Below are positions 2,777-61,913 of a stretch of DNA of 64,000 nt, one piece after another. A program made the position numbers and the translations under genes. This DNA is from an uncultured Acidobacteriota bacterium (GTDB lineage: Bacteria > Acidobacteriota > Terriglobia > Acidiferrales > UBA7541), in contig CAVUWC010000005.1 of the NCBI GenBank assembly GCA_963745095.1, positions 340,581 through 404,580 of the forward strand, read 5' to 3'. Under the pieces are notes generated by a model. The model did no database searches and was not told the DNA's origin. It worked only from the letters and a program-made list of their open reading frames with translations. Each line of letters opens with the position of its first letter. The stretch's first letter is position 1.

Positions 2777-3360
2777 TGCTGTTCTCCTGCACTGGAGTAA
2801 ATTCTTTTGTTCACTTGGCGTTCCACGGGCTTGCCAAACGCATCTTTCCCGATTTCATGGAACGAAACGCCATCCATCGCAATCTTTTCCACGCGTCCGT
2901 CGTACAACTGATCGCCTTCACGGAGAAAATAGGTCCGCGCCTGCGGATTGGTTACCACCGCAATCATGCCGTTCGGCGCTTTCACAATGCCGTCCAGCCG
3001 TAGCGTGCTCACTTGCAGACCCGCTTTGCCGGGAGGCAGCTGTGCCGTGGCATTCTTTTGCGCTTGCTGACGTGCCACCAAAGACTCGAACGGATCACGC
3101 CGCGCGGACTTGTCGTCGCCTTCCTTCGGCGCGTCTGGGTTCACCGCGGTCTCGACAGGCTTGGCTGGCTTGGGAGCCTTCGCCACTTTTTGAGTTGCGG
3201 ACTTTGCTGGAGGCTTTTTCGCCGCTGCCGGTGCTGCTGGTTTTCCTGGTTGCGCCGCAGCCGTGGAGGCCTGCGCACGCAGCCCAGGTGCGGCTGCCGC
3301 GAGCAAAATCCCTAGTACGAGAGTTAGTGCTGAACGCATAGATCGCTCATTCCCGCTCAA
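2773..3360 (-). CDS. pilP: Type IV pilus assembly protein PilP-like
   Basis: 195-aa ORF between pilO and pilQ. It has a signal peptide, an Ala/Pro/Lys-rich linker and a C-terminal beta domain (LRLDGIVKAPNGMIAVVTNPQARTYFLREGDQLYDGRVEKI). The call rests largely on operon position. Confidence 0.65.
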   Translation of the reverse strand: MSGNERSMRSALTLVLGILLAAAAPGLRAQASTAAAQPGKPAAPAAAKKPPAKSATQKVAKAPKPAKPVETAVNPDAPKEGDDKSARRDPFESLVARQQAQKNATAQLPPGKAGLQVSTLRLDGIVKAPNGMIAVVTNPQARTYFLREGDQLYDGRVEKIAMDGVSFHEIGKDAFGKPVERQVNKRIYSSAGEQQ

Positions 3361-3363
3361 GGG

Positions 3364-4014
3364 TTATTTCCCCGCCGGCTTGACTGCGGACTTCGCCCCT
3401 GGTGCTCCTGGGGCTGGACCGACGTCAGCTGGCTTGGTGAAGAAAGTCGTTGCCGTGAAAATTGCGGATACCGTTGTCCCCGGCCGTATCGGATACTTCG
3501 TGCCCTTGGACTTGTCTGGATCAGCAAACTCCAAGTCGCCCACGTTGATGATTCTCGAAAGCCTGCCCAACCGCCCAAAAAAGTCCATCAGGTTGAAGTA
3601 CGGCCCGTCCGCCTGCACTTCGAACGGCATTTCATAATGAAAGTCTTTCGGAACAATCGCCTCAGCCGTCAAGCGCCGGAGCTGCACATTCGACGAACTG
3701 GCTGCGCCCTGAAGCAGCCGGATAAACTCATCCGTTTCTTTTTCTTCGGGCACGATCGTCTTCAGCGTATCGAGCTGCTTCGAGAGTGCATCCATCTGCT
3801 GTTTCAGTTCGCCGTAACGCTGCCTATAAACTTGCAATTGCTGAACTTCTGTATTCAAGGTAGAGCGCTGCTGCACAGCCTTATCGACCGCGTCGCGTTC
3901 CTGTGCCACTGGAGAAAGCGGAATGTAAACTCCCAGGAGAAGCACCACGACCGCGATGGCGACTGCCACCAGGCCCTGCATGAACACCGACATGTCTCGA
4001 AACGGATTGGCCAT
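3364..4014 (-). CDS. pilO: Type IV pilus assembly protein PilO
   Basis: 216 aa with a single N-terminal TM helix followed by a coiled coil (LNTEVQQLQVYRQRYGELKQQMDALSKQLDTLK). It sits between pilN and pilP. Confidence 0.8.
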   Translation of the reverse strand: MANPFRDMSVFMQGLVAVAIAVVVLLLGVYIPLSPVAQERDAVDKAVQQRSTLNTEVQQLQVYRQRYGELKQQMDALSKQLDTLKTIVPEEKETDEFIRLLQGAASSSNVQLRRLTAEAIVPKDFHYEMPFEVQADGPYFNLMDFFGRLGRLSRIINVGDLEFADPDKSKGTKYPIRPGTTVSAIFTATTFFTKPADVGPAPGAPGAKSAVKPAGK

Positions 4015-4023
4015 GGTCGTCCC

Positions 4024-4677
4024 TTATCCCTTCTTCGCCGGAGTCGCGACTGGCGCGGCTTTCGTCGGCACGTTCGCCGGCTTCGCTTGCGCCGGTGAAG
4101 CTGCCACTGGCTGCGGCGGAGTGATCTCAGCGGACAACTGGAAATTGAAAGTCTGGATGGCGCTGGCTTTGTCGTCCTGCTTCGCGTCCTTAATTTCCAC
4201 CTTTTGGAAATATCCGGAACGCTTTAGAGCCGTAATAAAATTCGCTATCGCGTTAACGGAAGCGGAAGAACCCTCAATGGTCAGGTTCGACCCTTTCCGC
4301 GTCATGGTTGTCAGCCAGAGATTCTCTGTTCGGGAAACCGTGTTTGCCACCATATCCAGAAGATCTTGCCCGCCGGTCCGGTCGCGTTGCAGTTGTTCAA
4401 TGGTGGAAACTCTCTGCTGCAAAACCTGCTTCTGCTTATCGAAAGCCTCTACCTGTTGCTTGATGCTCTCGAGGTCGGTCTTCTGCGCCTGCAACGTCTT
4501 GATCTTGGCGTTCTCGGTATTCAGCTGCTGTTGCCACGAGTAATAAAGAAAGCCAAGAACGAGAACGCCGAGAACCAGTCCGGCGCCGATGAAGAGCACG
4601 GGAAGCGCGGCACCTGTATCGACTGGCCTCCGCGATGCTTTAGGCCGTATTTGTCCGAGAAGGTTTATGCGAATCAT
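4024..4677 (-). CDS. pilN: Type IV pilus assembly protein PilN
   Basis: 217 aa starting MIRINLLGQ (PilN-type INLL motif), with one TM helix, a coiled coil and an Ala/Pro-rich C-terminal tail. It lies directly downstream of pilM. Confidence 0.85.
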   Translation of the reverse strand: MIRINLLGQIRPKASRRPVDTGAALPVLFIGAGLVLGVLVLGFLYYSWQQQLNTENAKIKTLQAQKTDLESIKQQVEAFDKQKQVLQQRVSTIEQLQRDRTGGQDLLDMVANTVSRTENLWLTTMTRKGSNLTIEGSSASVNAIANFITALKRSGYFQKVEIKDAKQDDKASAIQTFNFQLSAEITPPQPVAASPAQAKPANVPTKAAPVATPAKKG

Positions 4678-4679
4678 GG

Positions 4680-5729
4680 TTAGTCAAAGCTCCTCAGTGC
4701 CAGACCCACCGCAATGGCCAGCCGCGGTGACATCTCGCGGATTTGGTCATCGCTGTGCCGGCTGGGATTGACGAGCACTTTCCGAAAAGGATTCAACTCC
4801 TCTACCGGCATCGCAAACTCTTCTCTGAGCAAGTCCACCAGCCCAGGTACGCGCGCCGTACCGCCCGCCACCACGATACGCTGAATATTTTCGCCGCTCG
4901 CCGTGGCACGGAAGAAGTCAAACGTCTTTTGAATTTCCAAGGTGAGAATGTCCGACACGCTGCGCAGAATCTGCTGTTTCTGCTCATCGGTCACGCTCGG
5001 AAGCGTATCGCCCTTCTTCAGGCGCTCCGCATCCTCGAAGCTCAAATCCAATTCTTTTTGCAGCGCGTCCGTATACTGGTTGCCGCCCACGCTGACGTCG
5101 CGCGTAAACAGCGGCACACCGCCGCGGACGATATTGATGTTCATAACGCTGGCGCCGATATTCAGCAACGCAACCGTCTGGCCTGCATCCGGTTCGTAAT
5201 TTACTTCAAAGCAGTTCTGCAAGCCGAACGCATCGATATCCACGACCACAGGCGTCTTGCCTGCCTGCGCCAGAACGTTCGTGTGGTTCAGAATCTTGTC
5301 CTTCTTTACGGCCACCAGCAGGACGTCCATCTGCGCGTCCATCGACTCGAGCAACTGATAGCTCAGGTTCACGTCCGCGATGTCGAACGGAATGTGCTGG
5401 CTGGCTTCCGAAGGAATCCGGTCATACAACTCTTCCTCGGTCATCAGCGGAAGCGGCACCCTCTTCACAATCACCGAGTGTCCTGAAACCGATGTCGCCA
5501 CGTTCTTCGTCTTTACGCGTTGCGCATCGAAAATCTTGCTGATCGCGTTGGCCACCTGCGGCGCGTCCATGATCGCGCCATCCACGACGGTGTCCTGCGC
5601 CAGCGATTCCATTCCAAAGCTTACAAGCTCGTAGCCGGCTTTCGTCGCCTTCAGCTCGACTGCCTTGATCGAGCTTGAGCCGATGTCCAGCCCTACCAGC
5701 TGTCTTGATTTTTTGCCCATTCCCAACAT
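4680..5729 (-). CDS. pilM: Type IV pilus assembly ATPase-fold protein PilM
   Basis: 349 aa with actin/FtsA-like motifs (VGLDIGSSSIKAVEL ... VVAGGTARVPGL). It is the first structural gene of the pilMNOPQ order. Confidence 0.92.
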   Translation of the reverse strand: MLGMGKKSRQLVGLDIGSSSIKAVELKATKAGYELVSFGMESLAQDTVVDGAIMDAPQVANAISKIFDAQRVKTKNVATSVSGHSVIVKRVPLPLMTEEELYDRIPSEASQHIPFDIADVNLSYQLLESMDAQMDVLLVAVKKDKILNHTNVLAQAGKTPVVVDIDAFGLQNCFEVNYEPDAGQTVALLNIGASVMNINIVRGGVPLFTRDVSVGGNQYTDALQKELDLSFEDAERLKKGDTLPSVTDEQKQQILRSVSDILTLEIQKTFDFFRATASGENIQRIVVAGGTARVPGLVDLLREEFAMPVEELNPFRKVLVNPSRHSDDQIREMSPRLAIAVGLALRSFD

Positions 5730-15585: not shown

Positions 15586-16806
15586 ATGAACCGCGTTTAT
15601 CTCGATTACAACGCTACGACTCCCGTCGAGCCTCAAGTCCTCGACGCCATGCTTTCCTATTTCTCCGCCGATTTCGCGAACGCTTCCTCCATCCACACGC
15701 CCGGCCAACGCGCCCGCTCTGCCGTCGAAACCGCTCGCGAACAGGTCGCTGCCCTCATCGGAGCCAAGCCCCAGGAAATCGTCTTCACCAGCGGCGGCAC
15801 CGAATCCGACAACCACGCCATCTTCGGTGTTGTCGCCGCCAAGGTGGGACAGGCATTCCTGCCTGTCTCCCCTGTCTCTGACTCCTTTGCTACCAACGCG
15901 CCACACATCGTCACCATCGCGATCGAACACGAAGCCGTGCTAAACGCGTGCCAAGCCGCAGAGAAGCAAGGGGTCGACGTTACGTATCTTCCGGTCGATC
16001 GCGACGGGCGCGTCGATCCCGAAGCCATTCGCCAATCGATCCGCCCCGAGATCGCTCTCATTACCGTGATGCACGCCAACAACGAACTCGGCACCATCCA
16101 GCCGCTCGAAGCAATCGGTCGTATCGCCAAAGAACACAAAGTCTATTTCCACACGGACGCGGTCCAGTCCGCCGGAAAAATTCCGATCGACGTAAACGCA
16201 CTTAACGTAGATCTGCTTTCCCTCTCCGGCCACAAGCTCTACGCCCCCAAAGGCATCGGCGCTCTCTATGTCCGAAGCGGAACTCGTTTGCGCCAATTTC
16301 TCTACGGAGGCCACCATCAGCGTGGCTTCCGCCCCGGGACGGAAAACGTCGCGGGAATCGTAGGACTCGGCAAGGCAGCGGAGCTCGCACAAACCTCTCT
16401 TGTGAGCGATGCGCAGCTAGTCTCAACCCTGCGCGACAAACTCGAACGCGGCTTGCTCGATCGCGTGCCGCAGGTTGGTGTCAACGGCAGCGGCGCTTCG
16501 CGCACTCCCAACACAACAAACCTCATGTTTTCAGGCATCGATGGCGAAGCTTTGGTCATTGCCCTCGACTTGAGGGGCCTAGCCTGCTCGGTCGGCGCAG
16601 CCTGTTCCTCCGGAGCCGTCGAGCCATCGCACGTCCTCACCGCCATCGGCCTCTCCCAAGAAGAAGCCAAATCCAGCCTGCGCTTCAGCCTCGGCCGTCA
16701 CACCACCCAGTCCGAAATCGACTTCGCGCTGGAAGTCATTCCAGCTGCCGTAGCTCACCTGCGCACGTTCTCACCCACCTACCAAAAGGCCGCCTCCCAT
16801 GTCTAA
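15586..16806 (+). CDS. Cysteine desulfurase (NifS/IscS family)
   Basis: 406 aa with the PLP-lysine motif SLSGHKLYAPKGIGALYVR and the active-site loop SVGAACSSGA. It lies immediately upstream of mnmA. Confidence 0.92.
   Translation: MNRVYLDYNATTPVEPQVLDAMLSYFSADFANASSIHTPGQRARSAVETAREQVAALIGAKPQEIVFTSGGTESDNHAIFGVVAAKVGQAFLPVSPVSDSFATNAPHIVTIAIEHEAVLNACQAAEKQGVDVTYLPVDRDGRVDPEAIRQSIRPEIALITVMHANNELGTIQPLEAIGRIAKEHKVYFHTDAVQSAGKIPIDVNALNVDLLSLSGHKLYAPKGIGALYVRSGTRLRQFLYGGHHQRGFRPGTENVAGIVGLGKAAELAQTSLVSDAQLVSTLRDKLERGLLDRVPQVGVNGSGASRTPNTTNLMFSGIDGEALVIALDLRGLACSVGAACSSGAVEPSHVLTAIGLSQEEAKSSLRFSLGRHTTQSEIDFALEVIPAAVAHLRTFSPTYQKAASHV
15844..15867 (+). repeat. REP-like palindrome (GTGG-headed: GTGGGACAGGCATTCCTGCCTGTC) embedded in frame in the cysteine desulfurase gene
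   Basis: A GTGG head is followed by a perfect 8-bp stem (GACAGGCA/TGCCTGTC) with loop TTCC. It encodes ...KVGQAFLPV... within a segment that looks like an extra loop between the conserved TESDN..AI and HIVT..IEH blocks. Confidence 0.55.
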
Positions 16807-16919
16807 CCCCGCGTCTCTTCTCTGCGAATCCTCTGTGAGCTCTGCGTCTCTGCTTTATCTTTTCTCTTTGCCCGTCCCGTGCGCCCCATCGCCGAATCCG
16901 GTAAACTAGAATCATCACA

Positions 16920-18071
16920 ATGAACGCCGCAACTGAATTCGACACGCTTCCAACGCGCGAGGAAACGCAGCGCGGCCTCGTTGCTATTGCCATGTCAGGC
17001 GGCGTAGATTCCTCCGCCGTCGCGGCCGTCCTCCAGGAACAAGGACGCCCCATCGTTGGCCTTACCATGCAACTCTGGAATCAGCGCCGCCTCCCCGAAC
17101 TTCAAGGCGAAGGCCCCAAGCAGCACCGCTGCTGCTCGCTCGACGATGTCTACGACGCCAAACGCGTCGCGCAGCATCTGAATTTTCCGCATTACGTGGT
17201 GAATTTCGAGGAGCAGTTCGAGCGGCGTGTCGTGCGCCCGTTCGTCGACCAATACCTCGCCGGCCGCACCCCCATCGCATGCACCAACTGCAACACCGAC
17301 GTAAAGTTTGAGCCGTTATTGCGCATGGCGCGCCAGATCGGCGCTGAGCGTCTGGCCACCGGCCACTACGCGCGCATTCACAAGAACGACCACACCGGCC
17401 GCTGGGAACTCTTGCGCGCTCGCGATGACAGCAAGGATCAATCGTATTTTCTTTGGGGGCTTTCGCAGGAACAGCTTTCGCGCAGCGAATTCCCGCTAGG
17501 CGAGTTGACCAAGGAAGAAGTCCGCGAACTCGCCCGCCGCACAAATCTTCCCGTGGCCGAAAAGCCGGAAAGCATGGAGCTTTGCTTTGTTCCTACCGGC
17601 AACTACGTTCAGTTCATCCAGGCCTATTCAAGGGACGCCGGAATTTCTTTTTCGAAAAGCGAAGGCGAGATTGTTACGGAAGATGGCGCCGTCGTCGGCC
17701 ATCACGATGGCGTCCACAATTTCACGATCGGACAGCGCAAAGGTCTTGGCTTCTCCGCGGGCAAGCCGCTCTATGTGCTCTCCATCGACCCGAAGAAAAA
17801 TCGGGTGGTAGTCGGCGATGACGACGCGCTTCGCACAACGTCGTTTGAAGTAAGCGGCGTAAATTGGGTTTCGATCGAACAGCCCTCAAGCCCCGTCCGC
17901 GCAACTGTAAAAATCCGGCACAAGCACGAACCCGCAGCCGCAACTGTCGAGCCGCTTGAATCAACAACCGCCAGAATTACCTTTGATGCCCCCCAGCGCG
18001 CCATAACACCAGGCCAAGGCGCAGTCTTCTACGATGGCGACCGCGTCCTCGGCGGCGCCTGGATTAAATAA
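16920..18071 (+). CDS. mnmA: tRNA 2-thiouridine(34) synthase MnmA
   Basis: 383 aa with the PP-loop AMSGGVDSSAVAA and MnmA-like sequence along its full length (CCSLDDVYDAKRVAQHLNFPHYVVNF...). Confidence 0.93.
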   Translation: MNAATEFDTLPTREETQRGLVAIAMSGGVDSSAVAAVLQEQGRPIVGLTMQLWNQRRLPELQGEGPKQHRCCSLDDVYDAKRVAQHLNFPHYVVNFEEQFERRVVRPFVDQYLAGRTPIACTNCNTDVKFEPLLRMARQIGAERLATGHYARIHKNDHTGRWELLRARDDSKDQSYFLWGLSQEQLSRSEFPLGELTKEEVRELARRTNLPVAEKPESMELCFVPTGNYVQFIQAYSRDAGISFSKSEGEIVTEDGAVVGHHDGVHNFTIGQRKGLGFSAGKPLYVLSIDPKKNRVVVGDDDALRTTSFEVSGVNWVSIEQPSSPVRATVKIRHKHEPAAATVEPLESTTARITFDAPQRAITPGQGAVFYDGDRVLGGAWIK

Positions 18072-37300: not shown

Positions 37301-37576
37301 ATGAAACGCTTAGTTCCAATACCTAAGGGCCTTACCGACCACATGAAGCGAGCCGGAGAGACCGGCATAGGCTATCAGGTCGTTTCCGTAGAGCTCCGAG
37401 ACGGTCGAGCATTCGATCAGGTCGTAACAAGCGAGGGCTGCATCATCGAAGTCCGCGGGTTCAAGGAAATTCCCTTTGCCCCCGAGGAAGTAGCCGCGGT
37501 GAACGTGAACCACAAGCGTTGGAATTTCCGAGCTGGTTCAGAAGTGCGCCCCAAAGCTCGCGCAGCGACCGCTTGA
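37301..37576 (+). CDS. Small hypothetical protein
   Basis: The ATG at 37301 is preceded by AAGGAG 5 nt upstream. The 91-aa product (MKRLVPIPKGLTDHMKRAGETGIGYQVVSVELRDGRAF...) matches no family I recognise. Confidence 0.45.
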   Translation: MKRLVPIPKGLTDHMKRAGETGIGYQVVSVELRDGRAFDQVVTSEGCIIEVRGFKEIPFAPEEVAAVNVNHKRWNFRAGSEVRPKARAATA

Positions 37577-49546: not shown

Positions 49547-50086
49547 ATGAAACGGTTTGCATTTTTGCTGATTGCAGTCGCAGCCCTGGCCGCCGTTCTC
49601 GCCTACATGCCCAACGCATCCGGACAGTCCGATGGAGACGCCTCCCCGATCTATGGAGTCAAAGTTCCCGCCGGATACCGCGATTGGAAAGTGATCGCCG
49701 TGGACCAACTTCTAGTACCCGGAAAAACCGACCAGTTGCGCGCTCAACTGGGCAACGACATAGCGATCAAGGCCTTTAAGGAAGGGACTCTCCCGTTCCC
49801 AGACGGTAGCATCATTGCCGCGATTCATTGGACTCGTGTCTTGTCGGAAGACAACAACAAAGCCCTGGCCTCTAAATTCCCCGGCGCTCAATCTTTCCTT
49901 GTCGGATCCCCCGTGAATGTCCAATTCATGGTCAAGGACTCAAAGAAGTACGCCGCGTCAGGCGGCTGGGGGTTCGCTGACTTTAAGGACGGAAAGCCTG
50001 GCGACAAGGCGCTACACGAACCCTGCTTCTCCTGTCACATCCCTGCGAAAGATCATGACTATGTCTTCACCCACTACGCACCTTAA
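49547..50086 (+). CDS. Cytochrome P460-family protein
   Basis: 179 aa with a signal peptide, a single C-terminal heme motif CFSCH and P460-like spacing (YRDWKVIAV...IAAIHW). An SD sequence (GGGAGGAG) precedes the ATG. Confidence 0.72.
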   Translation: MKRFAFLLIAVAALAAVLAYMPNASGQSDGDASPIYGVKVPAGYRDWKVIAVDQLLVPGKTDQLRAQLGNDIAIKAFKEGTLPFPDGSIIAAIHWTRVLSEDNNKALASKFPGAQSFLVGSPVNVQFMVKDSKKYAASGGWGFADFKDGKPGDKALHEPCFSCHIPAKDHDYVFTHYAP

Positions 50087-50161
50087 ACGAGGAAGGAATG
50101 GCATTGACGGTCCCAGCGACCGCCATCAAACACTGGGTGAGCAGCAAAGGAGTCCTCGCGC

Positions 50162-51253
50162 GTGAAGCGTACTCTGTCTTTTGTGATTTGGATCCGTCGA
50201 ACAGTTTGGGTGGCGGCGCTTTTGGGAGTCTTCATCGTGATATTGCATTCACAAAAACCCGTTGTCTCAACAGCGAACGCCGCACTCGTCGACGAGGGTC
50301 CCATGCCGAGCTTGGATGGAGCCGTTGGCTGGCTCAACTCCACTCCTCTGAATCGGAAGTCACTCCGCGGAAAGGTTGTGCTGGTCAATTTTTGGACCTA
50401 TACCTGTATCAACTCTATCCGGCCCCAGCCGTATATCGAGGCTTGGGTGACAAAGTATAGCGACGAAGGGTTTGTAGTGATCGGCGCACACACCCCGGAA
50501 TTCTCGTTCGAGAAGGTACGCGAGAACGTGGAAACCGCCGTGCGCGATTTGAAGATTACCTATCCAGTGGCCATTGACACCAACTACGAGATTTGGCGAG
50601 CGTTCAACAACGAAGCTTGGCCTGCTCAATATCTCATCGATGCAAAAGGACGAATTCGCTACCACCACTTCGGGGAAGACAATTATGCCGAAATCGAGCG
50701 CGTCATCCAGGAGCTCCTGAAAGAAAACGGCACCACTGGTCTCGCTTCTGTCGCGACGAGCGTTTCCGCCGTTGGAATCGAGGCCCCTCCCGACTGGAAG
50801 GATGCGCGATCTCCCGAAACTTATATCGGATATCGCCAGGCCGAGAATTTCGCCTCGCCCGAAAAATTGCACAAGGATTCAGTCCAGATATTCAGCGTGC
50901 CCGCGAAGCTCTCCTTGAACCATTGGGGATTGAGCGGTTCGTGGAACGTCAATGCCGAGAGCGCCGTACTTGAGAAAGTGCCTGGAAACATCGTGTTCCG
51001 TTTCCACAGCCGCGACCTGCACTTGGTGCTTGCAGGCGCGATGGACGCCAAACCAGTCCGCTTCATCGTACGATTGGATGGTTCTGCCCCCGGCGAAAAT
51101 CGCGGCGGGGACATTTCCCCGGACGGCTCCGGCGAAATTCGCGAGCCTCGTCTCTATCAGCTGATCCGGCAAAAAGGTCCAATTGTTGACCGAACCTTTG
51201 AGATCGAATTCCTCGATCCAGGTGTTCACGCTCTGGACTTCACGTTTGGTTAG
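50162..51253 (+). CDS. Membrane-anchored thioredoxin-fold protein, DipZ C-terminal-domain-like
   Basis: 363 aa with a GTG start and an N-terminal TM helix. The redoxin domain reads GKVVLVNFWTYTCINSIRPQPYI...IGAHTPEFSFEK...YPVAIDTNYEIWRAFNNEAWPAQYLID, followed by a beta-rich C-domain. The redox motif reads C-I-N-S rather than CxxC. Confidence 0.72.
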   Translation: MKRTLSFVIWIRRTVWVAALLGVFIVILHSQKPVVSTANAALVDEGPMPSLDGAVGWLNSTPLNRKSLRGKVVLVNFWTYTCINSIRPQPYIEAWVTKYSDEGFVVIGAHTPEFSFEKVRENVETAVRDLKITYPVAIDTNYEIWRAFNNEAWPAQYLIDAKGRIRYHHFGEDNYAEIERVIQELLKENGTTGLASVATSVSAVGIEAPPDWKDARSPETYIGYRQAENFASPEKLHKDSVQIFSVPAKLSLNHWGLSGSWNVNAESAVLEKVPGNIVFRFHSRDLHLVLAGAMDAKPVRFIVRLDGSAPGENRGGDISPDGSGEIREPRLYQLIRQKGPIVDRTFEIEFLDPGVHALDFTFG

Positions 51254-51332
51254 CGACTTCGAGTAACGAAACGATTGGCAACGCTCTTCCGTCACGGACG
51301 AAACAAAGGATGGCACGACCCAGGAGGCAACG

Positions 51333-51974
51333 ATGAGCACCGCCGCGGCAATTGACTTGAAGTTAGAGGTCGTCGTCATCCCTGTCTCGGATGTCGACCG
51401 CGCGAAAAAGTTTTACGCGCGGCTTGGGTGGCGCCTCGACGCCGACTTCCCTTTCGATAACGGCTTCCGGGTCGTCCAGTTCACGCCGTCCGGCTCCGGT
51501 TGCTCGGTCCAGTTCGGCACGAAGATCACATCGGCCGCGCCCGGCTCAGCCCAGGGCCTCTACCTGATCGTCTCCAACATCGCCGCTGCTCGTGCGGAGA
51601 TCCTCAGCCGCGGTGTCGCGATCAGCGACGTATTCCACGCCGGTACGCCAGGCGCTCAATTCCAACCCGACGCCACCAGCGGCCGTGTCAGCGGACCAGC
51701 GCCTGATCACGCCACCTACAGCTCCTTCGCCACGTTCAAGGACCCGGATGGAAACGGCTGGCTGTTGCAGGAAGTCACGACGCGACTACCCGGCCGCATC
51801 GACCCTGCCTCGACTTCGTTCGGCTCCGTAAGCGACTTGGCCAGCGCGCTTCGGCGTGCGTCCGCCGCTCACGGCGAACATGAGAAACGCATCGGCAAAG
51901 CCGATCCAAACTGGCCCGACTGGTACGCCGAATACATCGTCGCAGAGCAAGCGGGAACAAAACTTCCAAGCTGA
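51333..51974 (+). CDS. VOC (glyoxalase/bleomycin-resistance/dioxygenase) family protein
   Basis: 213 aa containing VVIPVSDVDRAKKFYARLGWRLD and FKDPDGNGWLLQE. An SD sequence (AGGAGG) precedes the ATG. Confidence 0.8.
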   Translation: MSTAAAIDLKLEVVVIPVSDVDRAKKFYARLGWRLDADFPFDNGFRVVQFTPSGSGCSVQFGTKITSAAPGSAQGLYLIVSNIAAARAEILSRGVAISDVFHAGTPGAQFQPDATSGRVSGPAPDHATYSSFATFKDPDGNGWLLQEVTTRLPGRIDPASTSFGSVSDLASALRRASAAHGEHEKRIGKADPNWPDWYAEYIVAEQAGTKLPS

Positions 51975-52185
51975 GCGGCGATCATGCACCACCAACCAAC
52001 GTCCGCGCGTCCAAGCAGTGAGAACGCCCCCCTCACGCCAATACCCAATGTCGAGCATTCGTGCGGGCATCCTGTAGCTTGCCCCTGCGCGTGATACACA
52101 TCAGTTCCGAAACTTTGAAGAACCTGCTCAAATACCATTCGGAAACTACTAACCCGCAGGACTACTTGGCTCCGGAAACGGTCGC

Positions 52186-52229
52186 TTGACTTCCGTGCGG
52201 CGCCGTCGTTTAATATGTTGCGCCGCCAC
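52186..52229 (+). promoter_or_regulatory. Candidate promoter and operator of the padR-ADOP operon
   Basis: TTGACT (52186-52191), a 17-nt spacer, then TTTAAT. An imperfect inverted repeat, GTGCGGCGC (52195-52203) and GCGCCGCCAC (52220-52229), brackets the -10 region. The ATG lies only 2 nt after the right arm. Confidence 0.3.
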
Positions 52230-52231
52230 AT

Positions 52232-52576
52232 ATGGACCAGACAACATCACAAGTGGAATGGAAAAAGGGCAGCGCCGAGATGCTCATCCTCTCGCTCGTC
52301 GAAGCCCGTCCGCGCCACGGCTACGAAATCAGCAAACTTATCGAGCAACGCTCTCGCGGCACTGTCCGTTTTCACGTCGCCTCGCTCTACCCGCTGCTCT
52401 ACCGTCTTGAACATCGCGGCTGGCTGAGCGGACGCTGGGTGGAAAAGGACGGGCAGCGCCGTCGCCGTTACTATCGCTTGACCCGCCAGGGCCGAAAAGT
52501 CCTCGCTTCGCAGCTTCGCGGCTGGCGCGAATTTGTAGCGGGTATCAATCGCATCACGGAGGCAGAAAATGCCTGA
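52232..52576 (+). CDS. PadR-family transcriptional regulator
   Basis: 114 aa with a winged-helix motif (LILSLVEARPRHGYEISKLIEQRS...ASLYPLLYRLEHRGWLSGRW). It overlaps the downstream ADOP gene by 8 nt. Confidence 0.9.
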   Translation: MDQTTSQVEWKKGSAEMLILSLVEARPRHGYEISKLIEQRSRGTVRFHVASLYPLLYRLEHRGWLSGRWVEKDGQRRRRYYRLTRQGRKVLASQLRGWREFVAGINRITEAENA

Positions 52577-55475
52577 ATGGAGACCGGAAATTCTTCGTAG
52601 GCTTGCTCCGCTGAGACTCGCGCCAGCGCGTGAGGCCGAAATTGCCGACGAACTCGCGCAGCACCTCGAAGACCGCTACCAGGAACTGCTCGCGTTCGGT
52701 ATTAGCAAAGAAGAAGCGAGCCTTACAGCCATAGAAGAACTTAAAGAGGAAGAGTTGCTCGCACGCGGGCTGCGGCCCGTCGAGACGGATTTGTATCGCG
52801 AACCTGTGACTTTGGGAAGGAGCGGCGCCAATTTTTTCTCCAGCATTCTTCAGGATATTCGTTACGCTCTCCGTATGCTTCGCAAATCTCCAGGCTTTAC
52901 CGTCGTCGCCGTGCTCACGCTGGCGCTGGGGATCGGCGCGAACACCGCCATTTTCAGTTTCATTAATGGAATTTTGCTTCGTTCCTTGCCGGTGAAAGAC
53001 CCTCAGCAACTCGTCGTCTTACGTTGGAGCTCACACACGCGTCCGAAATTAAAGGGTCACAGCGATTACGGCGACTGCTTGAATCTCTCGGGAGACTGCT
53101 CGTTTTCCCTCCCGTTTTTCAAAAATCTCCGTGACCACACCAGCGCTTTCTCCGGCATGGCCGCCTTCGCCGGCCCGCTCGACTATGATTTCAGCGGAAA
53201 TGGGCCTGCGAGTATGGCGCAAGGCCAGTACGTCTCCGGAGATTTCTTCTCGACTCTAGGCGTCAATGCAATGCTAGGCCGCCCTCTCGGCGTATCCGAC
53301 GATTCTCCTTCAGCGCCGCCGGCTATTGTGCTGAGTTTTTCTTATTGGCAACGCGCCTTTGGCGCGGACCGCTCAGCCGTCGGTCGCGCGGTGCGCTTGA
53401 ACAATATATCTACCGTGATCGTCGGCGTTGCCGAGCCCCTCTTCACGAATTTGACGCCTGGCAAAACCATTGATTTCTTCATGCCGTTTTCGGTCGCTGA
53501 TCGAATCCGGCCAGAGCATTGGGGACGCGGCGATCGCCTATCCGATGCGGGAGTCTGGTGGTCGGTCATTGTCGGCAGGCTGAAGCCGGGCGTTTCGCTC
53601 GAGCAAGCGCAGGCCGTCGCCACCACAATGTTCGTCAACGAAACAGCGCACGGCGCAAGCCCGTTTTTGAACGAAGCGGATGCTCCGGCCATCAAACTTC
53701 TTCCCGCGGCAGAGGGCCTGGATGGCGAGAGCAGCCAAATCGCACCAATGTTCTATCTGTTGATGTTTGCCGTTGGCCTCATCTTGCTGATTGCTTGCGC
53801 CAATGTCGCCGGATTGATGCTCGCGCGCTCGGCAACGCGTCAAAGGGAAATGGCCGTTCGTCTCGCACTGGGCGCGGGACGCGCGCGCATTGTGCGGCAA
53901 TTGCTCACGGAAAGCTTGCTGCTCTCCCTGGTCGGCGGCGCGCTGGGAATTTTTCTATCCCTATGGGGGATCAAGGCGATCGTCGTGCTCTTTTCCACTG
54001 GGTACGAAGCTTTTCCCTTCGAGATTGTCCCGGACGGGCGCGTGCTGCTGTTTACCGTCGCCGTCACCTTTGCCGTGGGGATTTTATTTGGTCTCGCCCC
54101 CTCCCTGCGCGGCGCGCGCATTGATTTGACTCCTTCGTTGAAGCAAACAGCTTCGTTGCTTCCCGGCAGTGCTGCGCACGGCGGGCGCTGGTTCCGTTTG
54201 GGAAACGCGCTGGTTGTGGCGCAAGTAGCACTCTCCATTGTTGTGCTCATCGGCGCGGGATTGCTCGTCCGCACGTTGCGCAATCTTCACAATTTGAATC
54301 CCGGCTTTGACACGCGAAGTATTCTGCTCTTGGGTCTCAATCCCACGGCCGCTGGATACACAGCCCAGAAGACCGCGCAGCTTTATAGCGATTTGCAGCA
54401 GCGGTTTGCCGCGCTCCCTGGCGTGATTTCCGTGAGCTACTCGGAAGATTCCCTATTGAGCGGAAATTGGTCTAGTGACGACGTGCACCTCGACGGCGCG
54501 CCATCAAAACAAAACGTCGAAGCCGCCAGGCTTACTGTTGGCCCGAATTTTTTCTCCACCATGCGCATTCCGCTATTTGCTGGCCGCACGTTCAATTCCG
54601 CGGATTTCGCTGTGGCCTCGGCGATCATTTCCGCGAGGACTGCCGCGGAAGAGGCAGCGAGCAAAGCGAAGGCGACGGACGCCGGTAATCATGCGACCCC
54701 GGCGGTACTCAAGGCGAATCTGGCGCCTCTTCCCGTCATCATCAATGAAACGTTCGCAAGACAGTGTTTCCCGAATCAGAATCCACTGGGCAAGCATTTC
54801 AGCGACCCGCAGGAAGACAACGAACCGCCCATCGGTCCGCATTCCGGATACTTGATTGTGGGCATCGCCGGCGACGCAAAATACAATTCCCTGCGTCGTG
54901 AAATCAAACCGACCATGTACATGCCGCTCGTTAGCAATAGCGCGCATTTCGAATTGCGCACCGCCGCCGACCCGCTTGCTTTGGTGACACTTGTGCACGG
55001 CATCGTTTCCAGTGTGGATGATAATCTTCCGCTGTTCGATGTGCGCACGCAAACCGAGCAGATCGACCAAACACTTTTTCTGGAGCGTCTCATGGCGCGG
55101 ATTTCGAGCACTTTCGCCTTGCTGGCCCTCGTCCTCGCGTGCATTGGCCTATACGGTTTGCTGTCCTACGAAGTGTCGCGCGGCACCCGCGAACTCGGAA
55201 TCCGCATGGCGCTGGGCGCGCAGCGCCGCGATCTGTTGCGACTGGTTGTCGGTCAGGGAATTTTACTGGTTCTGATCGGCGCAGCGATTGGAATTGCGGC
55301 GGCGATTGGCGTCACGCGTTTTATGTCCACGATACTCTATGGAGTTCACGCGGACGATCCGCTGACATTCGCGGGCGTTGCGATTCTGCTGACGCTCGTG
55401 GCACTCGCCGCATGCTACATCCCCGCTCGCCGCGCCATGCGCGTCGACCCCACGGTGGCCTTGCGTTACGAATGA
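52569..55475 (+). CDS. ADOP-type duplicated FtsX/MacB-like ABC permease (PadR-associated)
   Basis: 968 aa with an N-terminal helical extension (MPEWRPEILRRLAPLRLAPAREAEIADELAQHLEDRY) followed by two MacB-like/FtsX modules (...RELGIRMALGAQRRDLLRLV...RRAMRVDPTVALRYE). Confidence 0.9.
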   Translation: MPEWRPEILRRLAPLRLAPAREAEIADELAQHLEDRYQELLAFGISKEEASLTAIEELKEEELLARGLRPVETDLYREPVTLGRSGANFFSSILQDIRYALRMLRKSPGFTVVAVLTLALGIGANTAIFSFINGILLRSLPVKDPQQLVVLRWSSHTRPKLKGHSDYGDCLNLSGDCSFSLPFFKNLRDHTSAFSGMAAFAGPLDYDFSGNGPASMAQGQYVSGDFFSTLGVNAMLGRPLGVSDDSPSAPPAIVLSFSYWQRAFGADRSAVGRAVRLNNISTVIVGVAEPLFTNLTPGKTIDFFMPFSVADRIRPEHWGRGDRLSDAGVWWSVIVGRLKPGVSLEQAQAVATTMFVNETAHGASPFLNEADAPAIKLLPAAEGLDGESSQIAPMFYLLMFAVGLILLIACANVAGLMLARSATRQREMAVRLALGAGRARIVRQLLTESLLLSLVGGALGIFLSLWGIKAIVVLFSTGYEAFPFEIVPDGRVLLFTVAVTFAVGILFGLAPSLRGARIDLTPSLKQTASLLPGSAAHGGRWFRLGNALVVAQVALSIVVLIGAGLLVRTLRNLHNLNPGFDTRSILLLGLNPTAAGYTAQKTAQLYSDLQQRFAALPGVISVSYSEDSLLSGNWSSDDVHLDGAPSKQNVEAARLTVGPNFFSTMRIPLFAGRTFNSADFAVASAIISARTAAEEAASKAKATDAGNHATPAVLKANLAPLPVIINETFARQCFPNQNPLGKHFSDPQEDNEPPIGPHSGYLIVGIAGDAKYNSLRREIKPTMYMPLVSNSAHFELRTAADPLALVTLVHGIVSSVDDNLPLFDVRTQTEQIDQTLFLERLMARISSTFALLALVLACIGLYGLLSYEVSRGTRELGIRMALGAQRRDLLRLVVGQGILLVLIGAAIGIAAAIGVTRFMSTILYGVHADDPLTFAGVAILLTLVALAACYIPARRAMRVDPTVALRYE

Positions 55476-58686: not shown

Positions 58687-59544
58687 ATGGCCCAGCCCGC
58701 GCGTTCTCGCGTTCAGGTCCTCACTTATCTCGTCATCCTTTTGGCGCTCAGCTCGTTTTTTTATTTCCTCATCATTCATTCCGGCAGCCTCGGCTACGGT
58801 CGCGGCATGTATGTCTTCGGTCTCATGTGGTGCCCCGCTTTGGCAGGCATGCTCACCTTGCGGCTGAATGGCCGGAGCATCGCTGATATTGGCTGGAAAT
58901 GGGGCGAAACCAAATATCAGATTCGTAGTTGGTACATTCCAATTCTGTACGCCTCTGTCGCCTACGCCATTATCTGGATTTTTCATTTCGGCGCGTTTGG
59001 CAATCCCGAGTACTACGATGCGATGACAAAGTCCATGCATCTGGGCGGCCCTCCATGGATTTCCGTCGTCCTGGGAATTTTTCTACTCGGCACATTCGGA
59101 ATGGTTCGCAGCGTTTCCGCCTGCCTCGGCGAAGAAATCGGTTGGCGCGGATTTCTGGTCCCCGAGCTTTCTAAAACCACATCTTTTACCGCGACTTCGC
59201 TTATCAGCGGCGTCATTTGGTCGCTCTGGCACTATCCCATCTTGATTTTCGCAGACTACAACGCCGGCACTCCCACTTGGTACGGCCTCAGCTGCTTCAC
59301 CGTGATGGTCGTTTCTATCAGCTTCATTTTTGCCTGGATGCGCCTCAAATCCGGCAGCGTCTGGACCGCCGCGATTCTCCACGCCAGCCACAACCTCTAT
59401 ATCCAAGGCGTCTTTACTCCGATAACGCGCGACACAGGGAAAACGAAGTGGTTCGTCGACGAATTCGGCTGCGTCCTTCCGCTGGTCGCCATCGCCTTCG
59501 CCATTTATTTCTGGACCAGGCGACGCGAATTGCCGACTGCGTAG
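58687..59544 (+). CDS. CPBP-family intramembrane glutamic endopeptidase (CAAX protease-like)
   Basis: 285 aa, polytopic, with motif 1 (GEEIGWRGFLVPEL) and motif 2 (AAILHASHNLY). Confidence 0.85.
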   Translation: MAQPARSRVQVLTYLVILLALSSFFYFLIIHSGSLGYGRGMYVFGLMWCPALAGMLTLRLNGRSIADIGWKWGETKYQIRSWYIPILYASVAYAIIWIFHFGAFGNPEYYDAMTKSMHLGGPPWISVVLGIFLLGTFGMVRSVSACLGEEIGWRGFLVPELSKTTSFTATSLISGVIWSLWHYPILIFADYNAGTPTWYGLSCFTVMVVSISFIFAWMRLKSGSVWTAAILHASHNLYIQGVFTPITRDTGKTKWFVDEFGCVLPLVAIAFAIYFWTRRRELPTA

Positions 59545-59704: not shown

Positions 59705-60262
59705 ATGCTCCACGCCTGGCATGATGTTTCACCAGGAGACGAACTTCCCCGCGATTTTCAAGCGGTGATCGAAATCCCGCTCGGCTCGAACGTGAAGTAC
59801 GAGTTGGACAAGCCCAGTGGCTTGCTGAAAGTCGATCGCATCATTCACTCGGCCGTTTTTTACCCTGCGAACTACGGGTTCATTCCCCAGACGTACGCGG
59901 AGGACAACGATCCTCTGGACGTGCTGGTTCTTTGCCAAGAGCCCGTCCAACCGCTCGCTCTCATTAAGGCGCGCGCCATCGGGCTGATGTCCATGATCGA
60001 CTCCGGCGCCAGCGACGACAAAATCATTGCAGTGGCCACTGGCGATCCGGAATTCAGCAGCTACATTGAGGCTCGCGACCTTCCGCCGCATCGCTTGCTC
60101 GTACTCCGGCGTTTCTTTCAGGATTACAAGCTGCTCGAGGGTAAAAAGGTGGAAGTCGATGAAATACGCCCGGCCTACGCCGCGCTGACCGTTATCGAAC
60201 GGTCTCTGGCCCGCTATAAAGCCGAACGAGAGCACCTATTGGCAAAAGATGCGCGGAAATGA
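59705..60262 (+). CDS. ppa: Inorganic diphosphatase (family I)
   Basis: 185 aa containing [34 protein letters not shown] and DDKIIAV. Confidence 0.95.
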
Positions 60263-60278
60263 CGACAGCGGCGTGCTT

Positions 60279-60300
60279 GCGCAGCATGCTGCGCCACTAC
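60279..60300 (-). repeat. REP-like palindrome, class C (reverse orientation)
   Basis: The plus strand reads GCGCAGCATGCTGCGCC-ACTAC, the reverse complement of GTAGTGGCGCAGCATGCTGCGC. It starts 17 nt after the ppa stop. Confidence 0.65.
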
Positions 60301-60476
60301 AAGGCTGACCTGGTTGCTAGTACAAAGACACTATTCATCTGCGTCGATAGGAATGCTACGTTTTGCCACCAGAATTCGGTGAAAACTGTTCGGCTCATCC
60401 AAAGAAGTGGCCTAGACTACGCGTTTCGGCCGCAAATATGTGTGCGTGTGCGAGCAGTCTGGGTGAATAACTAACG

Positions 60477-61223
60477 ATGACTCTCTTTTGGAAATGGGTA
60501 ATTGGCGGCTTTCTGGTCCTGTTGCTAGTGGCTTTTCTACTGCTTTGCAAAATGGCTGGCAGTCCCAAAGACGTCTACGGCATGGTCCGCTACGCCCTGC
60601 CTCATATGCACCGCGGCACGCTCAAAGTCGGCGACGACGCTCCCGACGCCCGCCTCCTGGACCTTGACGGTGCAAATCATTTCCATATTCGCGAACGCAC
60701 TGGCGCTCGCCCTCTTGTCGTCATCTTCGGCAGCTACACTTGACCGCCCTTCCGCCGCCACGTCGGTGACGTGGTGCAGATTTACAACGACTACAAAGAT
60801 CACGCCGATTTTCTGACCGTGTATGTACGTGAAGCGCATCCGACCGACGAGTGGCAAATGAAGTCCAACGTGAAGGATGACGTCTGCTACGCCCAGCCGA
60901 AAACTCTCGCGCAGCGAGTAGCGATCGCGAACGATTTCATCAAACGCTTCCACTACCCCATCGCCTTCGGAATCGACGACATCGACAACGCCGCCAATGA
61001 CGCCTACTCCGCATGGCCCGAGCGTTTCTACATCATCGACGAATCCGGCCGCATTGCATATCGGGGCGGCATGGGACCGTTTCATTACAATCCCGACGAA
61101 GTTCGCGCATGGCTGGCGTCACGGTATGGCGCGGTGAAGCACGATCCGCCCGCGACTCAGGCGACTACTCCTACTACGGCTACGTCGTCAACAACGCCGA
61201 CTTCGCCAACAGGTGGGAGCTGA
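60477..61223 (+). CDS. Membrane-anchored iodothyronine-deiodinase-like thioredoxin-fold selenoprotein (in-frame TGA = Sec at 60741-60743)
   Basis: ORFs 60477-60743 and 60771-61223 are in the same frame and are separated only by TGA. Read-through gives ...RPLVVIFGSYT-U-PPFRRHVGDVVQIYNDYKDHADFLTVYVREAHPTDEW..., the deiodinase active-site signature with TGA at the catalytic position. A hairpin lies 12 nt downstream. The protein has an N-terminal TM helix and a Thr/Pro-rich C-terminal tail. Confidence 0.8.
60756..60776 (+). promoter_or_regulatory. Candidate bacterial SECIS stem-loop
   Basis: CGCCACGU-CGGUG-ACGUGGUG forms 8 bp (one G-U pair) with a G/U-containing apical loop. It starts 12 nt after the in-frame UGA. 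Confidence 0.55.
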
Positions 61224-61355
61224 TCCATCCGAAGACATGAGATTTTCGCTGGCAAACATTGGGGTTTCTTCATGATAGAATTTTTCGCGATGACAGCTGT
61301 CGCTCCATCGTGTTACAAAGAGTTCTAGGCCAGCGAAAAACGGAGAGGACGACTT

Positions 61356-61586
61356 ATGGCGCTTGATTGGTCACAATGCCCCGCCGTGGAAAGCATTCCC
61401 GGTAAGGTGGGCGGGGCATGGGTTTTCAAAGGGACGCGAATGCCCGTCTCTGTTGTCTTTGAGAATTTGGAAGATGGGATGACCATTGAAGAACTTATGG
61501 AGCAGTTCCCTGTCTCGCGTGAAGAGGTCAAGGCGGTCCTTGAATTCGCGGCGCGTAGTCTGGATGCGCCTGTCTGCCGGCCCTAG
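61356..61586 (+). CDS. DUF433-domain protein (putative antitoxin-like HTH)
   Basis: 76 aa containing PGKVGGAWVFKGTRMPVSVVFENLEDGMTIEELMEQFPVSREEVKAVLEF, the typical DUF433 pattern. Its stop codon abuts the next ATG. Confidence 0.8.
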   Translation: MALDWSQCPAVESIPGKVGGAWVFKGTRMPVSVVFENLEDGMTIEELMEQFPVSREEVKAVLEFAARSLDAPVCRP

Positions 61587-61913
61587 ATGCGCGTCTTGCT
61601 GGACACCGGTGCTCCTCGCGGAATAGCTCCCGCCCTCCACGGTCATACAGTCACAGAGAGCAGGTCACTGGGTTGGGATGAACTAAAAAATGGCGATCTA
61701 CTTGACGCAGCGGAATTAGCCGGATTTGAAGTCTTCGTGACTACCGATAAAAATATCAGGTATCAACAAAATCTCTCCAAGCGGAAAATCTCAATTGTCG
61801 TGCTCGGCAGAGGCCGGTGGCGACTCATTCGGCCAATGCTCTCGCAAGTGGTAGCTGCTGTTGATGCCGCAAAACCTGGCAGCTTCAGAGAAGTGGGCAT
61901 TGCTGATGAATAG
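61587..61913 (+). CDS. DUF5615/Mut7-C-like PIN-fold protein (putative toxin)
   Basis: 108 aa starting MRVLLDTGAPRGIA and containing DLLDAAELAGFEVFVTTDKNIRYQQNL. The ATG immediately follows the DUF433 gene's TAG. Confidence 0.72.
   Translation: MRVLLDTGAPRGIAPALHGHTVTESRSLGWDELKNGDLLDAAELAGFEVFVTTDKNIRYQQNLSKRKISIVVLGRGRWRLIRPMLSQVVAAVDAAKPGSFREVGIADE

Follow-up and report, generated by a model that had tools for sequence, protein, structure and literature searches.

The DNA analysed here, called the window below, is a stretch of 64,000 nucleotides (nt) of contig CAVUWC010000005.1 from an uncultured Acidobacteriota bacterium, and the gene in question is a deiodinase-like gene at 60477-61223 of its forward strand, whose reading frame contains an internal TGA. 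In the open reading frame (ORF) listing of 60300-61400, this gene appears as an 88-amino-acid (aa) ORF (60477-60743) and a 150-aa ORF (60771-61223), which share one frame. An earlier note on this DNA had claimed that the two are parted only by the TGA at 60741-60743, and translation of 60477-61223 agrees, this codon being the sole interruption of the frame. The product read through the TGA runs VVIFGSYT-[TGA]-PPFRRHVGD...FLTVYVREAHPTDEW; the plain translation gives VVIFGSYT, a stop, and then PPFRRHVGDVVQIY...FLTVYVREAHPTDEW. The expectation that gene callers split such a gene was also confirmed, since products of 81-88 aa and 141-158 aa are annotated in relatives. The features of the gene are as follows.

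60477..61223, + strand: complete coding sequence (CDS) of the putative selenoprotein of the deiodinase-like thioredoxin-fold family, 248 codons plus a terminal TGA, with selenocysteine (Sec, U) predicted at codon 89
60489..60551, + strand: N-terminal hydrophobic membrane anchor, approximately residues 5-25 (WKWVIGGFLVLLLVAFLLLCK), from Kyte-Doolittle hydropathy and helix 2-32 in the model of the Cys homologue P0001
60726..60752, + strand: active-site motif F84-G-S86-Y-T88-U89-P-P-F92, from the translation, alignments to iodothyronine deiodinases (DIO) and orthologues
60741..60743, + strand: in-frame TGA, putative Sec codon U89, from its presence in 83 of 83 copies and from alignment with DIO2, DIO3 and Cys homologues
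60756..60776, + strand: hairpin of the Sec insertion sequence (SECIS) type, arms 60756-60764 and 60768-60776, apical loop GGU at 60765-60767
60822..60854, + strand: loop-D edge motif Y116-V-R-E119-A-H121-P-T-D-E-W126, invariant, from the DIO alignments
60885..60887, + strand: codon of Cys137 (VCYAQPK), invariant in 27 subfamily sequences
61143..61220, + strand: low-complexity tail rich in Thr, Pro, Ala and Ser (D223-S248), varying among orthologues and of low confidence in the P0001 model
61221..61223, + strand: genuine stop codon of the gene, TGA

TGA terminates 18 of the 49 window genes, the deiodinase-like gene included. The code is thus the standard one, and reading through the internal TGA requires recoding that depends on context; an alternative genetic code, with TGA read as Trp or Gly, was ruled out by the same count.

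Family membership and the active site

For the profile and structure searches of the window protein, the TGA was replaced by Cys. The match to the Pfam family T4_deiodinase (PF00837) spans profile positions 73-234 of 237 and scores 138 bits, the cutoff being 27 (E=4e-40). The generic Redoxin model is only slightly over its cutoff (30.1 against 26.6 bits), AhpC-TSA stays below its own (23.6 against 26 bits), ResA lies well below (21.8 against 170 bits), and Thioredoxin_8 is also far under T4_deiodinase. In structure-sequence alignment, the catalytic cores of mouse DIO2 (9h48, E=1e-28) and mouse DIO3 (4tr3, E=4e-26) were recovered, the alignment to both is continuous across the deiodinase-specific insertion (loop-D), and the TGA falls on the catalytic Sec of both enzymes, which is Cys in the crystallised constructs. 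The deiodinase signature with TGA exactly at the Sec/Cys site, which the earlier note had read from the sequence, is thus borne out by the PF00837 match and by both DIO alignments. The NCBIfam model NF038285 (deiodinase_rel) is matched with 193.9 bits against a curated cutoff of 250 (E=5e-57, positions 169-337 of 347). Its C-terminal catalytic domain resembles the window protein, whereas the first ~168 positions of the model are without counterpart, only the anchor and a short conserved helix lying upstream here. As only the C-terminal half of the model is matched, and below cutoff, the protein is not a member of that longer equivalog.

The structure was inferred by proxy from the AlphaFold model of P0001, a Cys homologue of 67% identity, which has a predicted local distance difference test score (pLDDT) of 74. 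In this model, a long N-terminal helix (2-32) and another conserved helix accompany a thioredoxin-type fold, and the best matches in the Protein Data Bank (PDB) are DIO2, with a template-modelling (TM) score of 0.82, and DIO3 (TM 0.77), followed by ResA, DsbE, Bcp and AhpE. The functional residues of Dio2 and Dio3 correspond to the window protein as listed here.

Dio2 Ser127, proton relay: S86, kept
Dio2 Thr129, proton relay: T88, kept
Dio2 Tyr157, proton relay: Y116, kept
Dio2 Glu160, proton relay: E119, kept
Dio2 His162, proton relay: H121, kept
Dio2 Trp167, stacking partner of His162: W126, kept
Dio2 His182, proton relay: P141 (an invariant Pro), not kept
Dio2 Lys241 / Dio3 Arg275, substrate clamp: M199, not kept
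Dio2 Phe224 (Dio3 Phe258), gating residue: P181, not kept
mammalian Cys205, distal Cys: F164, not kept

Five of the six proton-relay residues (Ser127, Thr129, Tyr157, Glu160, His162 and His182) are retained and the residues proposed to contact the thyronine are replaced, which suggests that selenolate chemistry with most of its relay is preserved and the thyronine pocket is not. The site reads S-Y-T-U-P-P-F, with neither CxxC nor UxxC and no second Cys within three residues; Cys137 lies at the C-terminal edge of loop-D.

The same comparisons bear on an alternative that concerns function only, namely that the protein is a Sec-dependent thiol peroxidase or thiol-disulfide oxidoreductase of the Prx, TlpA or ResA type, facing the periplasm, and not a dehalogenase. 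It draws on the Redoxin match just above cutoff, on the weaker AhpC-TSA and ResA matches and on the place of ResA, DsbE, Bcp and AhpE directly behind the deiodinases among the structural neighbours. In the peroxiredoxin (Prx) motif PxxxTxxC, Thr stands three residues ahead of Cys, and Ser86 stands likewise three residues ahead of Sec; papers on deiodinase structure themselves describe a Prx motif and fold. Membrane-anchored thioredoxin-fold proteins of the TlpA/ResA type usually face the periplasm. However, the deiodinase profile is matched far more strongly (138 against 30 bits), the TM score is 0.82 for DIO2 and no higher than 0.81 for the oxidoreductases, which are much shorter targets of 12-20% identity, loop-D has been retained together with its relay residues, the sequence U-P-P-F offers no CxxC or UxxC, and the charges that flank the anchor give no orientation call. 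We consider this function possible, if unlikely.

Conservation of the internal TGA

The genome scan covered one genome per GTDB species and gave 208 stretches that encode a relative. The best 80 of these 208 were examined, almost all of them from metagenome-assembled genomes (MAGs) of Candidatus Acidoferrum, Acidoferrales or Acidobacteria gp2, and together with the window and two contig copies (one from the contig that carries locus L044) they make up 83 copies. The codon is TGA in all 83, within FGS[YF]T-TGA-PPFR[RS][HQ]VGD. The terminal stops of the same genes vary freely (TAA 35, TAG 30, TGA 17), and the internal TGA therefore behaves as a constrained sense codon, not as a stop. On both of its flanks, amino acids are kept and synonymous sites are free, with a mean relative codon entropy of 0.65-0.71. 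Alignment with Cys-containing homologues, which had been proposed as a check, was carried out and showed the correspondence: the TGA is aligned with TGT in the homologue at locus L085 and with the Cys of P0001 and P0005, and 39 of the 150 cluster representatives listed carry Cys at this position.

It could be argued that the TGA is a true stop, either within a split or decaying gene or between two separate products, a membrane peptide of 88 aa and a C-terminal fragment of 150 aa, and standard gene callers do annotate the split everywhere. With such a stop, the catalytic residue would be lost and the thioredoxin fold broken after strand beta1, ahead of helix alpha1. Both halves lie in one frame and the protein is conserved on both sides of the TGA in 83 copies diverged to ~70% aa identity. 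A true stop should also drift as the terminal stops do, yet the codon is always TGA, and no restart codon is conserved, the callers beginning the second ORF at differing positions. Termination at codon 89 is thus very improbable. Still less probable is a sequencing or assembly error with TGC or TGT as the real codon. For metagenome-derived sequence this is a general possibility only, and it is effectively refuted, as 82 further sequences, assembled independently and drawn from many projects and platforms, have the same TGA; moreover, the Cys relative P0001 differs from the window gene at many other positions and is without the hairpin described below.

The search of protein databases gave 775 relatives, and most of the closest are fragments of 136-182 aa that start right after the TGA. 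Two calls from the Joint Genome Institute (JGI) have Trp at the site, as a gene call with TGA read as Trp would give, and two relatives have Cys. In P0002, P0004, P0146, P0157, P0188 and P0209, Trp stands exactly at the Sec position (FGSFTWPPFR and similar), which is the signature of gene calls on short contigs that read TGA as Trp and hides selenoprotein genes. Six loci are titled as other taxa, namely Verrucomicrobiia (L006), Betaproteobacteria (L028), Udaeobacter (L042), Saccharimonadales (L046), Dormiibacterota (L049) and Elarobacter (L079), and their gene is 70-83% aa-identical to the window protein; nearly all other hits are titled Acidobacteriota. The contigs of these six loci are probably mis-binned or mislabelled.

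The hairpin downstream of the TGA

The hairpin CGCCACGU-CGGUG-ACGUGGUG begins 12 nt after the TGA. RNAfold reproduced it at 60756-60776, where the earlier note had placed it, and added one C-G pair, giving a stem of 9 bp with a GGU loop; counted from the A of the UGA, the first G of the loop is 21 nt downstream. In published summaries, the bacterial SECIS has a stem of 6-8 bp and a small apical loop with a conserved G ~20 nt after the UGA, and the geometry of the window hairpin agrees with this description. The 27-nt hairpin segment folds with -14.2 kcal/mol (z=-2.6, 2 of 200 shuffles being as good); within 66 nt of context the hairpin fold has z=-0.9, which is not significant. The single sequence is therefore suggestive but not decisive, and it is the comparative data that settle the matter.

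The copies comprise 81 distinct sequences, which fall into two clades, H (with the window) and Q, with the following properties.

H clade, n=40: residues R-H-V-G-D-V-V; hairpin CCACGUC-GGN-GACGUGG; mean minimum free energy (MFE) -13.4 kcal/mol over 27 nt; first loop nt at +24 from U
Q clade, n=41: residues R-Q-V-G-D-V/I; hairpin CGYCGCC-AGGUN-GGCGACG; mean MFE -9.2 kcal/mol over 27 nt; first loop nt at +16 to +20 from U

The H-type hairpin is formed in 40 of the 40 H-clade sequences, with 96% of cells paired. Codon-choice entropy was computed at sites of conserved amino acid within 75 codons around the TGA; 62 sites could be scored for the H clade and 52 for the Q clade. Zero entropy is confined to codons +5, +6, +7 and +10 of H and codons +5, +6 and +8 of Q, and the least variable stretch of six codons is +5 to +10 in both. 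All four H-clade sites belong to the hairpin stem. In the Q clade, +5 and +8 belong to the stem, and the frozen wobble G of +6 stands in the apical loop AGGUN, beside the conserved GG. The wobble positions of two codons exchange their freedom according to the register. The wobble of Gly +8 is a loop position in the H clade and varies freely (T 22, C 13, G 4, A 1), but all 41 Q-clade sequences, in which it is paired, have C. That of Val +7 is paired in the H clade, with C in all 40 sequences, and is a free loop position in the Q clade (T 16, G 13, C 7, A 5). The Cys homologue P0001 (TGT, locus L085) has no such hairpin (-5.6 kcal/mol, z ~0), nor the H/Q-V-G-D residues.

Several observations weigh against this interpretation. 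The Q-type stem is weak: z is ~0 for locus L001, and 23 of the 41 sequences have a C-A mismatch. A pairing control slid by -3 columns still gives ~75-78% paired cells, an effect of the GC periodicity of the region. The pairs of the stem hardly vary within a clade, so that classical compensatory covariation is not available. Over the whole window, no Rfam family was matched at gathering thresholds, and a permissive Rfam scan of 60650-60900 gave only chance snoRNA-like matches and no SECIS model. Nevertheless, the synonymous constraint on the stem, the GGU loop and the spacing from the UGA support the SECIS claimed for this locus, and together they are strong comparative evidence that the hairpin is probably of the SelB type.

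The H-clade sequences (in the window, 60753-60771) can also form most of the Q-type stem, with 83% of cells paired and a core of four base pairs, CGCC/GGYG. The region is thus potentially bistable, which suggests a route by which the SECIS register could shift between the clades.

Probable selenocysteine decoding

ARAGORN found no tRNA gene in the 64-kb window, hence no tRNA-Sec, and Pfam scans of 59 of the window ORFs gave no SelA, SelB or SelD. A wider search, with tblastn and the E. coli SelA, SelB and SelD (NC_000913.3) and with ARAGORN over 1.5 Mb of related flanks, also gave none, which counts against Sec decoding. However, these flanks all come from the same chromosomal neighbourhood, so the negative result for selA, selB, selD and tRNA-Sec says little, and published surveys record Sec-decoding Acidobacteria.

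That these searches gave no Sec machinery is also one of the arguments for a different decoding of the UGA, as Cys or Trp, by near-cognate readthrough or by an opal suppressor (such as an allo-tRNA or a selC*-type tRNA-Cys, for which Acidobacteria and Deltaproteobacteria have furnished descriptions), with a hairpin that merely slows termination. UGA followed by C is a weak termination context, and the UGA here precedes C. In addition, acidobacterial allo-tRNAs have been proposed in the literature as nonsense suppressors, and Cys at this site would still supply an active-site thiol, as in many Cys-type members. If Cys were the product, the change from TGA to TGY would be trivially easy, yet all 83 copies have TGA. 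The loop G and the spacing of the hairpin are those of SelB-type elements, and its stem is under synonymous constraint. None of the 84 tRNAs in the 1.5 Mb flanks was flagged as a suppressor or has a UCA anticodon, and the paper cited for the selC* tRNA-Cys reports it from phyla other than Acidobacteria. We regard a decoding as Cys or Trp as highly improbable.

Conservation and pairing taken together, the internal TGA (codon 89) is very probably read as Sec. It is likewise probable, with good confidence, that the locus is a single intact gene for a membrane-anchored selenoenzyme of 248 residues, of the deiodinase family and thioredoxin fold, with Sec inserted by means of a SECIS. It is proposed that the UGA at codon 89 is bypassed as a stop because the hairpin 12 nt downstream acts as a bacterial SECIS: it would recruit SelB-GTP-Sec-tRNA(Sec) to the ribosome, and Sec would be inserted. 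The hairpin would be embedded in codons that also encode the conserved R-R-H-V-G-D-V-V. The lineage would have evolved two alternative hairpin registers (H and Q), each of which may set a GG(U) loop ~20-24 nt from the UGA.

Membrane anchor and C-terminal tail

An N-terminal anchor had been claimed for the protein, and it was found in the 81 distinct orthologous proteins, in which the best window of 19 residues has a mean Kyte-Doolittle value of 2.5. Before the anchor there are ~1.8 Lys and Arg, after it 2.0 Lys and Arg with 1 Asp or Glu; by the positive-inside rule, these charges are balanced and give no orientation call. The further suggestion that the enzyme faces the envelope is consequently supported neither way, the more so as the catalytic domain of mammalian deiodinases, which share this kind of anchor, is cytosolic. 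The Thr/Pro-rich tail also noticed earlier (D223-S248) is present, though variable in length and sequence among orthologues, which are 212-295 aa long and match the window protein over residues 1 to ~240.

Proposed catalysis and substrate

In the proposed mechanism, the selenolate of Sec89, activated by a hydrogen-bond relay of S86, T88, Y116, E119, H121 and W126, would attack an electrophilic atom of the substrate. The resulting Se-X or Se-OH intermediate might then be resolved by Cys137 to a selenenylsulfide, which would be reduced by a thiol reductant. Cys137 is thus a candidate resolving thiol. Among the 150 representatives listed, it is present in 27 of 66 truncated (putative Sec), in 2 of 4 Trp-called and in 2 of 39 Cys-type sequences, counts that are uncorrected for kinship and that hint at a resolving partner peculiar to Sec forms.

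As the substrate we tentatively favour a halogenated aromatic compound rather than a thyroid hormone, by analogy with the reductive dehalogenation that animal deiodinases perform; some other redox substrate, such as a hydroperoxide, is nearly as likely. A more specific proposal, which we think rather doubtful, is a membrane-bound reductive dehalogenase acting on naturally halogenated phenolics in acidic organic soils, an activity that would be ancestral to the deiodinases and older than their thyroid role. Three points weigh against these functional proposals: the thyronine contacts and the distal Cys205 are replaced (M199, P141, P181, F164), the enrichment of Cys137 in Sec forms may merely reflect phylogeny, and the housekeeping neighbours of the gene (kdsA, kdsD, kdsC, ppa and the pseudouridine synthase gene) offer no functional clue.

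Gene neighbourhood and other features of the window

The genes at this end of the window are ordered kdsB, pyrG, kdsA, kdsD, kdsC, ppa, the deiodinase-like gene and a gene for an S4/pseudouridine synthase. The upstream ppa and the downstream pseudouridine synthase gene are also found in Acidobacteriota of the Candidatus Acidoferrum type. A scan of 60200-61450 for promoter and terminator consensus sequences gave no match.

Several apparent insertions interrupt this order. At 61356-61913 (+), between the deiodinase-like gene and the pseudouridine synthase gene, lie a gene for a DUF433 protein (76 aa, E=5e-15) and, directly after it, a 108-aa ORF without Pfam match; the flanking genes are adjacent in L001 and L086, so the pair looks like an inserted toxin-antitoxin-like pair. 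At 58687-59544 (+), between kdsC and ppa, there is a gene for an Rce1-like CAAX protease, a variable insertion present at this spot in L088 and not in L001, L086 or L087, the order being otherwise kept. pyrG and kdsA, adjoining in related loci, are parted here by 49547-55475 (+), with genes for a cytochrome P460, a protein of 363 aa with Redoxin and Thioredoxin_10 domains, a glyoxalase-family protein and a MacB/FtsX-type permease of 968 aa, which looks like an insertion of redox and detoxification flavour.

Elsewhere in the window, a complete type IV pilus assembly cluster, pilM-pilN-pilO-pilP-pilQ (the last encoding the secretin), is located at 728-5729 (-). At 15586-18071 (+), a gene for a class-V aminotransferase of the cysteine desulfurase type adjoins that for the tRNA 2-thiouridylase MnmA, a sulfur-relay arrangement that is not Sec-specific. 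The 90%-identity cluster of the window pyrophosphatase mixes pyrophosphatases of 185 aa with proteins of 136-162 aa named "iodothyronine deiodinase" or "hypothetical protein", which appears to be an oddity of clustering or bookkeeping. Across the window, 56 further in-frame TGA candidates were listed and judged to be off-frame noise without testing each; the only one examined, at 37574-37576, is merely the stop of a separate 104-aa ORF.

Relation to known systems and significance

Deiodinase-like Sec and Cys proteins with a bacterial SECIS were reported from the Sargasso Sea metagenome by Zhang et al. (2005) (PMC1088965), who noted that their function in bacteria must differ from thyroid-hormone metabolism. 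Prokaryotic selenoproteome reviews of 2022 and 2026 (PMC9312934; PMC13188914) list the family as functionally uncharacterised. These three papers bear out the view of the earlier note that it is a computationally predicted family whose function in bacteria is not known. A literature search gave no paper that ties the family to Acidobacteria or Acidoferrum, and no characterised bacterial homologue of deiodinase. By an exhaustive HMMER search, the wider family comprises 2,928 clusters at 50% identity with E<1e-3, 917 of them with E<1e-10, and its full-length members are mostly of the Cys type, FG[SN]xTC[GP]PFR.

With the published bacterial selenoproteins of this family, the window protein shares the PF00837 domain, a UGA paired with Cys in homologues and a SECIS candidate directly after the UGA. 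The reviews, however, give UxxC for them (PMC9312934; PMC13188914), whereas the clade of the window has U-P-P-F and, farther away, an invariant Cys137. Examples in the literature come from the sea, and the window clade belongs to Acidobacteriota of soil and peat (Candidatus Acidoferrum / gp2); it differs further by a predicted Sec in every copy examined and by a conserved housekeeping neighbourhood. Vertebrate DIO1-3 have in common with it a single N-terminal anchor, a thioredoxin/Prx-like fold with loop-D, the motif S-x-T-Sec-P-P-F and the conserved relay of Ser, Thr, Tyr, Glu and His, plus Trp. The animal SECIS, in contrast, lies in the 3'-untranslated region and that of the window gene would be an intragenic hairpin of bacterial type; the Cys beside Sec (Cys168 of Dio3) is Tyr87 here, the residues proposed to hold the thyronine are not conserved, and a soil bacterium would not be expected to have thyroid hormones as substrates. 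The comparison with the SECIS of E. coli fdhF, to which SelB binds, shows a hairpin just 3' of the UGA within the CDS, a stem of 6-9 bp and a small G-containing loop ~20 nt away in both cases. Here, however, there is no Rfam SECIS match and no evident bulged U, and sister clades use two mutually exclusive registers.

The gene is therefore of a kind known since 2005, one that a specialist in selenoproteins would find expected; it adds a member to the family, at most a distinct subfamily, and overturns nothing. What is specific here is the U-P-P-F motif, the soil acidobacterial lineage with TGA at the Sec site throughout, the fixed neighbourhood and the two registers of the SECIS-type hairpin. 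The gene is mis-annotated almost everywhere as two hypothetical ORFs, and hundreds of database entries are C-terminal fragments; some entries have Trp at the TGA. Once the gene is recognised, the annotation can be set right for a protein that at least 208 species-level genomes of a common soil lineage encode. The gene also provides, for this bacterial family, a dense and natural comparative series of ~80 orthologues, all of the Sec type, with close Cys relatives, and testable handles in the relay residues, the candidate resolving Cys137, the absent thyronine-binding residues and the two SECIS designs. If the proposal of a dehalogenase for soil phenolics is true, Sec would have been retained uniformly in an abundant soil lineage because the acceptance of a halogen cation strictly requires selenium, and the two interchangeable SECIS registers would show a SelB-binding hairpin migrating within a constrained coding sequence.

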